NCBI GenBank assembly: GCA_951406725.2
Contig: OX597841.1
Location: 26,536,001 to 26,600,000 of the forward strand
DNA: 64,000 bases
Reading direction: 5' to 3'
Origin: Octopus vulgaris
Lineage: Eukaryota
Shown here: positions 6,098-58,249 of the stretch, piece after piece
How the letters are laid out: each line of letters opens with the position of its first letter
Numbering within the stretch: position 1 is the stretch's first letter
Notes under the pieces: model-generated
Databases searched by the model: none
What the model saw: only the letters and a program-made list of their open reading frames with translations
What the model was told of the DNA's origin: nothing
Position numbers and translations under genes: made by a program

Positions 6098-6165
<68 letters not shown>

Positions 6166-6580
6166 TACACAGACACGCAAACACACAAACAAACGTATAC
6201 ACATACACACTCACGCACACACAACAACAGGCATGCTAACAAAGGTATATACACATACATATACACACACACAGATACACATATATATATATGTATGCAT
6301 ACAGCCTTCACTCATACGCACAGACGCTGACACACACACACACATGCGCTCACACACACTCACATACAGCCATGCATACACATACCCCCATCCCGCACAT
6401 GCGTACACAGGACGTCGAAATTATCCGAAGTTTATATTTAAAACGTCCATGTCCGTCTTGGCTTTTTTTTCGTTTGCTTTTATGTGTGTTGGTTCGTATT
6501 TAAATTGTTTGTTGTTGTCGCTGTTGCTGGTGCTGTAATAATTATTGTTGTTGTTGTATACACCCACAACAAGAACAACG

Positions 6581-11530: not shown

Positions 11531-12281
11531 CTCTTACTCTCTTTTACTCTTTTACTTGTTTCAGTCATTTGACTGCGGCCATGCTGGAGCACCGCCTTTA
11601 GTCGAGCAAATCGACCCCGGGACTTATTCTTTGTAAGCCCAGTACTTATTCTATCGGTCTCTTTTACTTGTTTCAGTCATTTGACTGTGGCCATGCTGGA
11701 GCACCGCCTTTAGTCGAGCAAATCGACCCCGGGACTTATTCTTTGTAAGCCCAGTACTTATTCTATCGGTCTCTTTTACTTGTTTCAGTCATTTGACTGT
11801 GGCCATGCTGGAGCACCGCCTTTAGTCGACCAAATCGACCCCGGGACTTATTCTTTGTAAGCCCAGTACTTATTCTATCGGTCTCTTTTACTTGTTTCAG
11901 TCATTTGACTGTGGCCATGCTGGAGCACCGCCTTTAGTCGAGCAAATCGACCCCGGGACTTATTCTTTGTAAGCCCAGTACGTATTCTATCGGTCTCTTT
12001 TTTGCCGAACCGCTAAGTAACGGGGACATAAACACACCAGCATCGGTTGTCAAGCAATGCTAGGGGGACAAACAGACACACAAACACGCACACACATATA
12101 TATATATATATACATATATACGACAGGCTTCTTTCAGTTTCCGTCTACCAAATCCACTCACAAGGCATTGGTCGGCCCGGAGCTATAGCAGAAGACACTT
12201 GCCCAAGTTGCCACGCAGTGGGACTGAACCTGGAACCATGTGGTTGGTTAGCAAGCTACTTACCACACAGCCACTCCTGCG

Positions 12282-20570: not shown

Positions 20571-21145
20571 TACTCTTTACTCTTTTACTCTTTTACTTGT
20601 TTCAGTCATTTGACTGCGGCCATGCTGGAGCACCGCCTTTAGTCGAGCAACTCGACCCCGGGACTTATTCTTTTTTGTAAGCCCAGTACTTATTCTATCG
20701 GTCTCTTTTGCCGAACCGCTAAGTAACGGGGACATAAACACACCAGCATCGGTTGTCAAGCAATGCTAGGGGGACAAACACAGACACACAAACACATACA
20801 CGCATATATATATATATATATACGACGGGCTTCTATCGTTCTAGTCATCACCTCCATCATCATCATCATCATCATCATCACCACAACCAGCAGCACCACC
20901 ACCACCGTCACCGCCACCAGCATCACTGCTATCTACCATCACCGCCGCCGCCCTCAACACCAATAACAAGAACTTTACTTTACGACGCGCTTCTTTCAGT
21001 TTCCGTCTACCAAATCCACTCACAAGGCTTTGGTCGGTCCGAGGCTATAGTAGAAGACACTTGCCCAAGGTAGCATGCAGTGGGACTGAACCCGGAACCA
21101 TGTGGTTGGTTAGCAAGCTACTTACCACACAGCCACTCCTACGCC

Positions 21146-21195
<50 letters not shown>

Positions 21196-21551
21196 CATAT
21201 ATACACACGATGGGCTTCTTTCAGTTTCCGTCTACCAAATCCACTCACAAGGCTTTGGTCAGCCCGAGGCTATAGTAGAAGACACTTGCCCAAGGTGCCA
21301 CGCAGTGGGACTGAACCCGGAACCATGTGGTTGGTAAACAAGCTACTTACCACACAGCCACTCCTGCGCCTACGTATACATATATACGACGCGCTTCTTT
21401 CAGTTTCCGTCTACCAAATCCACTCACAAGGCTTTGGTCAGCCCGAGGCTATAGTAGAAGACACTTGCCCAAGGTGCCACGCAGTGGGACTGAACCCGGA
21501 ACCATGTGGTTGGTTAGCAAGCTACTTACCACACAGCCACCCCTGCGCCTA
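20571..21551 (-). mobile_element. SINE A with an internal templated insertion and two extra tandem 5' heads
   Basis: Heads end at ~21145, 21370 and 21551; insert at ~20835-20980. Confidence 0.85.
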
Positions 21552-22533: not shown

Positions 22534-23631
22534 GGACGGCGAGCTGGCAGAAACGTTAGCACGCCGGACGAAATGCGTAGCCGTATTTCGTTTGCCGCTA
22601 CGTTCTGAGTTCAAATTCCGCCGAGGTCGACTTTGCCTTTCATCCTTTCGGGGACGATAAGCTAAGTACCAGTTACGCACTGGGGTCGATATAATCGATT
22701 TAATCCATTTGTCTGTCCTTGTTTGTCCTCTCTGTGTTTAGCCCCTTGTGGGTAGTAAAGAAATAGGTATTTCGTCTGCCGTTAAATTCTGAGTTCAAAT
22801 TTCGCCGAGGTCGACTTTGCCTTTCATTCTTTCGGGGTCGATAAATTAAGTACCAGTTACGCACTGGGGTCGATGTAATCGACTTAATCCGTTTGTCTGT
22901 CCTTGTTTGTCCTCTCTGTGTTTAGCCCCTTCTGAGTAGTAAAGAAATGGGTATTTCGTCTGCCGCTACGTTCTGAGTTCAAATTCCGCCGAGGTCGACT
23001 TTACCTTTCATCCTTTCGGGGTCGATAAATAAGTACCAGTTATGCATTGGGGTCGATGTAATCGACTTAATCCGTTTGTCTGTCCTTGTTTGTCCTCTCT
23101 GTGTTTAGCCCCTTCTGAGTAGTAAAGAAATGGGTATTTCGTCTGCCGTTACGTTCTGAGTTCAAATTCCGCCGAGGTCGACTTTGCCTTTCATCCTTTC
23201 GGGGTCGATAAATAAGTACCAGTTACGCACTGGTGTCAATGTAATCGACTTAATCCGTTTGTCTCTTCTTCTCTGTCCTGTCTGTGTTTAGCCCCTTGTG
23301 GGTAGTAAAGAAATAGGTATTTCGTCTGCCGCTACGTTCTGAGTTCAAATTACGCCGAGGTGCCTTTCGGGGTCGATTAAATAAGTACCAGTTACACACT
23401 GGGGTCTATATAATCGACTTAATCCGTTTGACTGTCCTTGTCTGCCCCCCCCCCCTGTGTGTAACCCCTTGTGGGCAGTAAAGAAATAAGAAACGTTTGC
23501 ACGCCGGACGAAACGTTAGAACGGCATTTTCGTCCATCTTTACTTTCAGAGTTGAAATTCCGCTGAGGTCGACTTTGTCTTTCATCCCTTTCGGAGTCGA
23601 TAAACAAAGTACGAGTTAAACACTGGGGTCA

Positions 23632-31690: not shown

Positions 31691-31907
31691 ATGTTATATA
31701 ATGTGTGTACATATGTATATGTATGTATATATATATATATAAATGTGTATATATGTATATATATATGTATAATGTATATATATATGTATATAAATGTATA
31801 TATATATATATGTAAAAGTAAAAAATATATATATAAACTGGGACAAGAACGTGAAACACCTAGAAGACGACACAAGAACCACAGGACGGGACATTCGAAG
31901 CCCTCAG

Positions 31908-31980
31908 TCATCAGTCAAGAACCGGATCATCTTCGCAATTTCGGCTGATTAATCTTGAGATTGCTCCGACCTGGGCAGCC
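31908..31980 (-). ncRNA. Candidate non-circularly permuted, pseudoknotted hammerhead with kink-turn (family H6; element ~31835-31992)
   Basis: Minus strand: GGCTG c CCAGGTC GGA GCAAT C TCAAGA ttaat CAGCC GAAA TTGC GAA GA T GATCCGG t TCTTGA CTGATGA. All HHR core nucleotides and three core-flanking stems are present, in non-standard order. Confidence 0.6.
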
Positions 31981-31988
31981 ACCAAGGG

Positions 31989-32112
<124 letters not shown>

Positions 32113-36290: not shown

Positions 36291-36595
36291 TGTGTATTAG
36301 TGTGTGTGTGAGTGTACATGCGAGTATGTATGTGTGTGTACGTGAGCATGGTTGTGTTTGTATGTGTATTCGTGTTGGTCCCCCATAATCTTCATATCAG
36401 ATAGGTCCAGAAAAAAGGGATATATCAAGCAATGGGATCAATCTGTTTGTCTAACCCTTTAATGCGGTGCTCCAGCTTGGCAGCGGTCCAATGAGGGAAT
36501 CAAGTGGAAGATAAAATAACTTGATGATGATGTAACTACACGTTGTAATAACAAGTTAGTTTCACCATCGACAGGTTTTATTTTTTTATCTTTTT

Positions 36596-37451
36596 GGCTG
36601 TGTGGTAAGTAGCTTGCTTACGAACCACATGGTTCCGGGTTCAGTCCCACTGCGTGGCACCTTGGGCAAGTGTCTTCTAGCATAGCCTCGGGCCGACCAA
36701 AGCCCTGTGAGTGGATTTGGTAGACGGAAACTGAAGGAAACCCGTCGTATATATGTATATAGGAGTGGCTGTGTGGTAAGTAGCTTGTTTACCAACCACA
36801 TGGTTCCGGGTTCAGTCTCACTGCGTGGCACCTTGAGCAAGTGTCTTCTACTATAGCCTCGGGCCGACCAAAGCCTTGTGGGTGGATTTGGTAGATGGAA
36901 ACTGAAGGAAACCCGTCGTATGTATGTCTAATCCTGCACATTCCATAATTTCTGTCAAACGCTACAAGACTCAGATATGAGACCCACAACCCCAATGTAG
37001 TATTGGTCCGACATTTGGGAAGTCACCGTTGTCAGTCAAGAGCAGGGGTCGACGAACCGGGGTAGATTACCCGAAGTGGGGGTAAAAAGGAAATTCTTAG
37101 GGATAATGAGGACTCATTAGACGTACTCTTTTATTCTTTTTAGGGTGGCCATGATAGTCGAAGAAATCGACCTCAGGACTTATATTTTGTAAGCCTAGTA
37201 CTTATTCTATCGGTTTTCTTTTGCTGAACTGCTCAGTTACGGGGACAAACACAGACACACAAACACAGACACACAAACACAGACACACAAACATATACAC
37301 ATATTTATACATATATATGACAGGATTCTTTCAGTTTCCGTCTACCAAATCTATAGTAGAAAACACTTGCCCAAGGTGCCATGCACTAATACTGAACCCG
37401 GAACCATGTGGTTGGTAAACAAGCTACTTACCACACAGCCACTCCTGTGCC

Positions 37452-57214: not shown

Positions 57215-57920
57215 GATGAGGGAGACCGCTGTATGGTAGCTAGAACCAGGTGAAATAGCAGCCAAATCTTCGTCACATGACACGTTTCTGTGTTTTATAT
57301 TTGTAAATGTATGTATGAGTCGATGAGAAAGACATCTATATGGTAGCTAAATCTGTTAGAAATAGCAGCCAAATCTTCGTGACATGACACCTTACTGTGT
57401 TATATTTGTAAATGTATGTATGAGTCGATGAGAAAGACATCTATATGGTAGCTAAATCTGTTAGAAATAGCAGCCAAATCTCTCTCAAATCATACCCCAT
57501 TGTTTTATGTATGTCTACATGTGTCAATGAGGGAGACATCTGTTTGGTAGCTAAATCAGTTAGAAATAGCAGCCAAATCTCCCTCAAATCATACCCCACT
57601 GTTTTATGTATGTATACATGTGTCAAGTAGGGAGACACTCTTTGGTAGCCAAATCAGTTAGAAATAGCAGCCAAATCTCTCTCAAATCACACCCCACTGT
57701 TTTATGTATGTATACATGTGTCAAGTAGGGAGACATCTGTTTGGTAGCTAAATCAGTTAGAAATAGCAGCCAAATCTCCCTCAAATCATACCCCACTGTT
57801 TTATGTATGTCTACATGTGTCAATGAGGGAGACATCTCTTTGGTAGCTAAATCAGTTAGAAATAGCAGCCAAATCTCTCTCAAATCACACTCCACTGTTT
57901 TATGTATGTATGAGCCAATG
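57215..57920 (+). repeat. Satellite E, ~7 units of 99-107 bp
   Basis: TGGTAGCTAAATC.GTTAGAAATAGCAGCCAAATCT repeated. Confidence 0.95.
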
Positions 57921-58004
57921 AGCGAACTGGCAGAAACATTAGCACGCTGGGCGAAATGCGTAGCCGTATATGTATATATATATATATATATAAAAATATA
58001 TATA

Positions 58005-58048
58005 ATTAAGTGCGAAACTGCGAGGACTTTCCAAACTCTGACTGATGA
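58005..58048 (+). ncRNA. 3' half of a diverged permuted-hammerhead motif
   Basis: TTAAGTGC-GAAA-CTGC-GAG-GA-CTTTCCAA-A-CTCTGA-CTGATGA; same spacing as the 3' half of 31908-31980 (-). Confidence 0.5.
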
Positions 58049-58249
58049 GGAAATCTACAGCGAATCACAAGGCTTTGGTCGGCCCAAGGCTATTGTAGAA
58101 GACACTTCCCTAAGGTTCCACGCAGTGGGACTGTATCCGGAACCATGTGGTTCGTAAGCAAGCTACTTACCACATAGCCATGCCTGCGCCTATAATATAT
58201 ATATATATATGCATAGTTATGTGTGTATATATATATATATATGCATAGT

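Follow-up and report, generated by a model that had tools for sequence, protein, structure and literature searches.

Within the 64,000-nucleotide stretch of Octopus vulgaris DNA analysed here (the window), a short segment beside a TA repeat reads like one half of a hammerhead ribozyme with rearranged blocks, which raises the question of what kind of element it belongs to and where its other half has gone. A first-pass annotation, made from the letters alone, had taken positions 58005 to 58048 for an independent, diverged copy of the 3' half of a permuted hammerhead found also at 31.9 kb. Both motifs are present as written, on the plus strand at the focal site and on the minus strand at 31.9 kb, where the part from GAAA to CTGATGA lies at 31942-31908. 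From the comparisons described below, the focal site is probably a dead copy of a repeat whose full copies carry a non-circularly permuted hammerhead that likely cleaves itself and likely sets the 5' end of the RNA that is reverse transcribed.

The focal fragment and its relatives

By alignment, the focal copy is homologous to one repeat family (family A) from about 58002 to about 58065, and judged on this homology it is an inactive, 5'-truncated copy of an old tandem repeat without an open reading frame and with a period of about 1.1 kb (Table 1). Alone, this segment cannot form a ribozyme, because the upstream strands are missing. The annotation had expected a multicopy sequence, and the focal 65 nt indeed gave 16 BLAST matches in the source genome (2.8 Gb), the 15 others being 82-89% identical. 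The copy at 31.9 kb belongs to family B, the young sister family of A, with a tandem period of about 0.78-0.87 kb and 5,514 exact pattern matches in the source genome; its own best genomic matches are 98-100% identical. Since families A and B can be aligned with each other, they are homologous, and the focal copy is independent only in the sense of representing a separate subfamily. Its value lies in the covariation that this subfamily adds and in one further copy that begins just past the predicted cut.

Table 1. Features of the two copies in the window; core positions follow hammerhead numbering
Feature	Position	Strand	Basis or remark
(TA)n tract, 5' junction	57967..58001	.	same junction type in most truncated copies
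Family-A fragment	58002..58065	+	ribozyme part 3' of the predicted cut, beginning about 6-7 nt past it; fold z = 0.09
Stem II 3' strand, terminal C11.1	58008..58013	+	partner upstream in full copies, missing here
GAAA core (G12-A15.1) and stem III 5' strand	58014..58021	+	GAAA 58014-17, CTGC 58018-21
3-nt bulge and GA (58022-26, kink-turn-like), strand of helix joining stems I and II	58022..58035	+	covariation
Stem I 3' strand CTCTGA (58036-41) and CTGATGA (58042-48; CUGAUGA core, C3-A9)	58036..58048	+	9 nt between GA and CTCTGA
Tail strand of clamp helix P0	58049..58065	+	pairs far upstream in full copies
Fragment of abundant SINE-like repeat, in place of the rest of the unit	58065..58190	+	19 other matches in the window, 77-91% identical
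Family-B copy	31802..31994	-	5'-truncated inside hairpin P1; stems I-III and core present, P0 partner strand absent
Upstream strand giving G10.1, predicted to complete stem II with 31948-31943	31976..31980	-	stem II partner test, folding
UC site	31958..31960	-	predicted cut between 31959 and 31958; by analogy of hammerhead numbering

The upstream half that had been predicted for untruncated relatives, with a complement to CTGC, TH and a complement to the stem I strand, is present in 11 of 16 other family-A copies, and 7 of those 11 also carry the predicted GCAC further upstream. This GCAC strand takes the place of the post-CUGANGA strand of stem II, a feature that goes beyond what had been noted before. 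The perfect TTGGAAA complement that had also been expected is absent, the corresponding helix (the joining helix described below) being mismatched in places, and the supposedly conserved TTAA turned out to be out of register (4 nt before GAAA at the focal site, 6 nt at 31.9 kb); the linker that is homologous between copies is ATAA at 58002-05. The other five family-A copies lack the upstream half: their start coincides with the predicted cut in two and lies some 6-7 nt past it in three, two of the latter possibly representing one duplicated locus. Replacement of the 5' half by (TA)n, as originally described, holds for the 5' junction, where such a tract was likely the insertion target, whereas the description misses that the copy is shortened at its 3' side as well, where it joins the SINE fragment at 58065. 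The 5' half was likely lost at insertion, as the start of copies tends to fall on the predicted cut or a little past it.

Neither family A nor family B units contain a reading frame with an N-terminal GIY-YIG and a C-terminal reverse transcriptase domain; partial tandems, inverted truncated copies and (TA)n targets are all present. After the tail, units of both families continue alike, with a long CT-rich tract that ends in a CACGTG motif (locus L025, 900-1200; locus L048, 1130-1510). The B unit also shows an ATG followed by a splice-donor-like sequence, for which a retained intron or an internal promoter is possible. At two loci (L041, 1501-1923, 71% alike; L031), two different ribozyme subfamilies lie inverted to each other, adjoining or within about 1 kb. 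As for the surroundings in the window, a minisatellite of roughly four copies with a period of about 120 bp lies directly upstream of the focal site (57415-57905), and SINE-like units form tandem arrays at 11547-12001 (112 bp), 20982-21551 (179/225), 22583-23488 (183) and 36595-36927 (171).

Fold and covariation of full-length copies

In full copies, the strands follow each other as clamp strand, hairpin P1, 5' strand of stem II, strand of the joining helix, GA, 3' strand of stem III and UH. After UH come the 5' strand of stem I, a short linker, the 3' strand of stem II, GAAA and the 5' strand of stem III, followed by the bulge-GA, the partner strand of the joining helix, the 3' strand of stem I, CUGANGA and the clamp partner. 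Covariation was analysed in 29 full-length copies (25 of 56 representatives and four others), from which truncated or internally deleted copies, near duplicates and a third family, family C, were excluded. In a scan of all column pairs, the highest ranks went to stems I and III and to the distal clamp helix P0. Across the six named helices, 80.7% of 941 cells were paired and 22 of 33 pairs had changes on both sides; these values were reached by none of 500 shuffles, and slid controls gave 20-41%, a test that is inflated by the kinship of subfamilies and, with a structure derived from the same sequences, counts as support and not as a probability.

Stem III is paired in 92.4% of cells with double changes in four of its five pairs, and stem I in 85.1% with double changes in five of six; the covariation of these two stems bears out the earlier expectation of a structured RNA family with differing stem sequences. 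The weakest element is the joining helix (64.7% paired), with mismatches beside the GA pairs next to the kink. All parts of the hammerhead core, CUGANGA, GAAA and UH, are present, and stems I and III adjoin it. The invariance of CUGANGA and GAAA is partly built in by the search patterns; UH and U16.1 lay outside the genome-wide patterns, and UH is kept across subfamilies with differing stems, as is the pair U16.1-A15.1 in 28 of the 29 copies.

Thermodynamic folding of single copies gave mixed results. The lowest value, z = -3.0, belongs to a young full B copy, in which P0, P1 and stem II form; for three further full copies, z was -1.59, -0.26 and +1.46, so that single old copies (-0.26, +1.46) are no better than shuffles, and P0 is weak in family C. 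Rfam searches of five loci gave no match at the gathering threshold, and the 150 listed of 486 matches by E-value were below gathering and almost all driven by microsatellites. The RNA fold is very probably real and conserved.

Kink-turns have as their consensus a 3-nt bulge and then tandem G-A/A-G pairs between two helices. A similar element occupies the junction of stem III and joining helix. Judged by eye, its non-bulged strand has the GA in 30 of 38 copies; the GA of the bulged side was partly selected by the search pattern. One young subfamily has U at 2n, and the element is absent from several non-cephalopod members of the Naiad group described below. The youngest B subfamily, which forms near-identical 843-bp tandem arrays (loci L144, L174 and L232), shows a compensatory change in stem III and a replacement of G by U at the second kink-turn pair.

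The partner strand of stem II

Since the alignment misregisters stem II between families, its partner was determined by a script in 38 copies (the 29 plus nine of family C), with four registers per candidate strand. Of five possible Watson-Crick pairs, the upstream strand formed 4.0 on average, against 1.95 for the strand that follows CUGANGA; at least four of the five pairs were formed in 27 of 38 copies by the former and in none by the latter, and stem II formed from the bases after CUGAUGA was rejected on this count. Swapping strands between copies matched the self score in 0 of 10,000 trials. Across families, scores fell to 2.1-2.7 for A-B and B-C and remained at 3.2-3.6 for A-C, because the A and C strands are similar. 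Closure of stem II by R10.1-Y11.1 is found, through the upstream strand. The tail after CUGANGA instead finds its partner about 120 nt upstream, forming helix P0; from this partner strand the sequence passes through hairpin P1 to the stem II strand.

As the upstream strand supplies stem II and the tail pairs in P0, we infer that the core is opened between A9 and G10.1 and would be clamped by two extra helices, P0 and P1. A contiguous ribozyme of the published type CSG from which the upstream CUGAUGA had been deleted was also considered and rejected, the bases before the stem II strand being the 3' arm of hairpin P1; no CUGANGA precedes the upstream stem II strand in family A, B or C.

5' ends of genomic copies

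If the full copies were cleaved at UH, their genomic 5' ends should cluster accordingly. From the first 100 of the 5,514 family-B matches, 98 were used; collapsing identical copies left 94, and dropping five with internal deletions or duplications left 89. Homology is lost within about 25 nt 3' of the predicted cut in 34 of these (within 16 nt in 30), two of the 34 ending exactly on the cut. In the next 25 nt upstream of the cut, only 3 of the remaining 55 end (Fisher p = 4.5e-6), and further upstream the counts per 25 nt are 6, 3 and 4; values above about 130 nt were set aside as unreliable. When copies were sampled by their 3' tail, 7 of 30 ended within the roughly 60 nt downstream of the core (about 30 of 100 by eye). 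Thus, the rate of 5' ends peaks just 3' of the cut and drops past it, and the helices run about 80 nt further upstream.

The peak fits templates that begin at the cut, as would be expected of a cleaved transcript. A similar clustering of 5' ends could result from microhomology with (TA)n, or from a reverse transcriptase that stalls in a stable fold. Neither joints nor a pile-up of ends were found in the contigs of four sequencing runs, none of them on record as RNA, and a depth step near the predicted cut in the same contigs is unreadable as cleavage.

Relation to Naiad elements

No canonical hammerhead is reported from Naiad Penelope-like elements in the available parts of Craig et al. 2021 (PMC8557442), where core cases and unexplained "HHR_half_core" cases are listed, Naiad_Ovul being among the latter. 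Family C matches the 3' ends of the octopus Naiads published there, and in the source genome the ribozyme motif of this family lies downstream and on the same strand at 19 of 30 loci found with a fragment of the Naiad reverse transcriptase. The split fold thus sits in the 3' UTR of the Naiad remnants of this genome. Families A and B may descend from Naiad as well, as their shared ribozyme region suggests.

The accompanying supplement was examined by eye with four CUGANGA variants, for which 55 of 62, 27 of 43, 14 of 25 and 14 of 23 matches were listed. Among the matches listed, the split form can be made out in consensus tails from several phyla: nine show it (Naiad_Obim, Naiad_Ovul, three from Acropora and four others), and part of it can be traced in a squid entry and in Naiad_Bfor, where stem I has about 2 bp. 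A contiguous type CSG, again by eye and among the matches listed, could be recognised in the tails of six other Naiad consensuses, including three from Nippostrongylus, and these share the joining helix of the split form. In total, the split or the CSG form could be read in this way in about 15-17 of 54 Naiad consensuses among these matches, and spider and crustacean CUGANGA matches mostly allowed no assignment of a fold.

No intact Naiad reading frame was found among 149 matches in the source genome (longest open frame 300 aa), tblastn gave no reverse transcriptase sequence near A or B copies, and searches of the source genome for Naiad reverse transcriptase and GIY-YIG yielded no autonomous partner for either family. 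An intact Penelope-like element, whose 781-aa frame encodes a reverse transcriptase with a C-terminal GIY-YIG, was rejected as a partner, as it shares only TA repeats with A and B units. This element (L107, 1405-5087; L109; L111) is young and has many intact copies in the source genome; its frame contains a CxxxxCxxC linker and is overlapped by a second frame upstream, which reaches up to 479 aa. About 1.2 kb past its frame, on the opposite strand, a type I-like hammerhead of canonical order is seen at L108, about 6150-6260 (minus strand).

Proposed mechanism and alternative explanations

The conserved fold is probably a self-cleaving hammerhead with a split core. In this ribozyme, G10.1 would come from the upstream strand and A9 would be held beside it by P0 and P1, and the kink-turn would turn stem III back so that its end meets the helix that connects stems I and II. 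Tandem transcripts might then be cleaved into unit RNAs starting at the cut, which a Penelope-type reverse transcriptase/endonuclease would copy into (TA)n tracts; copying may often stop a few bases short and leave 3' halves such as the focal copy. More speculatively, renewed pairing between the two ends of a unit RNA could restore a complete ribozyme, followed by ligation of the RNA into a circle.

In a wider sense, we lean towards a four-strand hammerhead core in which two helices replace the A9-G10.1 link and a kink-turn folds the periphery; together with the contiguous CSG form of nematodes, it may constitute the missing Naiad ribozyme across animal phyla, the two forms interconverting by circular permutation in tandem repeats.

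An alternative, which we consider unlikely, is a real fold that is no longer, or never was, catalytic in its split form and serves as a protein-binding or template signal for the reverse transcriptase, 5' ends arising from stalling or template switching. The broken A9-G10.1 link, which lies outside all six permutations considered by Eckert et al., would agree with this, as would the inexact 5' ends, spread over about 16 nt. In the anole Penelope-like element PAc, moreover, ribozyme mutants had no effect on insertion in vitro, so that the hammerhead is dispensable there, and no RNA-seq read ending at the cut is reported in the available parts of that study (PMC11167929). A mere signal does not, however, explain why UH, which no genome-wide pattern had selected, persists where the stems differ, why 5' ends become rare at the predicted cut while the helices go on upstream, or why nematode Naiads carry a contiguous CSG form with all core bases.

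Quite improbable is an ordinary type-SGC ribozyme in which the base after CUGANGA is G10.1, stem II is minimal and the upstream pairing is an inhibitory alternative. Most family-A copies do have G after CUGANGA, and the block order S-G-C and the linker of 3-4 nt between stems I and II match type SGC; across the 38 copies, however, this base (A9 being the last of CUGANGA) is U in 15, G in 14, A in 6 and C in 3, with U or C in the young B subfamilies, and the tail, never reaching four pairs, goes into P0 instead. A chance resemblance of the focal 44 nt to the 31.9 kb motif at a microsatellite-SINE junction can practically be dismissed: the focal fragment has no stable fold and the bare motif pattern is weak within the window (3 matches where 0.63 would be expected, a number reached by 3 of 100 shuffles), yet chance is refuted because of the 16 BLAST matches with 15 other copies, the family-A homology from 58002 to 58065, and 1,373 genome-wide matches to a tighter 3'-half descriptor against 38 for the reversed control.

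Should the preferred split hammerhead cleave, it would break the stated assumption that CUGANGA and stem II stay contiguous, move non-circularly permuted hammerheads from metatranscriptomes to animal genomes in thousands of copies, and explain both the puzzling half cores of Naiads and why these elements seemed to have no ribozyme. Furthermore, the role of Penelope-type ribozymes becomes testable, since the predicted cut is where the 5' ends of genomic copies accumulate.

Comparison with known ribozymes and elements

According to Eckert et al. 2023 (PMC10085705), hammerhead blocks can be arranged in six permutations under the assumption that CUGAnGA is attached to its stem II strand, block C being uninterruptible. 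Cleavage was shown there for SGC and CSG, type CSG comprising two metagenomic examples, and neither type was found in genomes of known organisms in the parts of the paper available. In some SGC ribozymes, stem III runs at its end straight into the helix linking stems I and II, although these two points lie far apart in the crystal structure.

With type SGC (HRIMA-1 and variants, PMC10085705), the octopus fold shares the non-circular order of site, GAAA and CUGANGA, the linker of 3-4 nt between stems I and II, and an extra helix that joins the other sides of these stems and is sometimes continuous with stem III. In contrast, block C, uninterrupted in SGC, is split here, with the stem II 5' strand at the 5' end, P0 and P1 at A9-G10.1, and a kink-turn-like element as the connection from stem III to the joining helix. 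The fold also occurs in an animal genome, where the available parts of PMC10085705 report none. The bulge-GA/GA element sits just at the junction of stem III and joining helix, and we infer that a kink at this place would solve the geometry of that connection. The fold would work like SGC without being a member of that type. With type CSG (PMC10085705), it shares the reversed cyclic order C-S-G, whereas the form described here corresponds to the CSG circle opened at A9-G10.1, with closure instead at the place where stem III meets the joining helix, so that, by its strand order, it is a circular permutation of CSG. A description of the split strand order was not found in the literature searched; subscription papers and the supplements of Eckert et al. 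might hold related variants.

Naiad Penelope-like elements (PMC8557442) resemble families A and B in (TA)n insertion, partial tandems and inverted, 5'-truncated copies. Families A and B differ from them in having no open reading frame and only the ribozyme region in common, and family C alone is linked to Naiad reverse transcriptase remnants. Animal non-LTR retrozymes and the minimal type I hammerheads of Penelope-like elements (PMC4209133; bioRxiv 10.64898/2026.07.22.740005) likewise come as ORF-less tandem units with one hammerhead per unit and a relation to Penelope-like elements, and cleavage with circularisation has been proposed for them. Their hammerheads, however, are described in these sources as following the canonical type I order, positions 9 and 10.1 being separated by no more than one extra base, whereas the octopus units, 0.78-1.1 kb in length, carry the permuted order.
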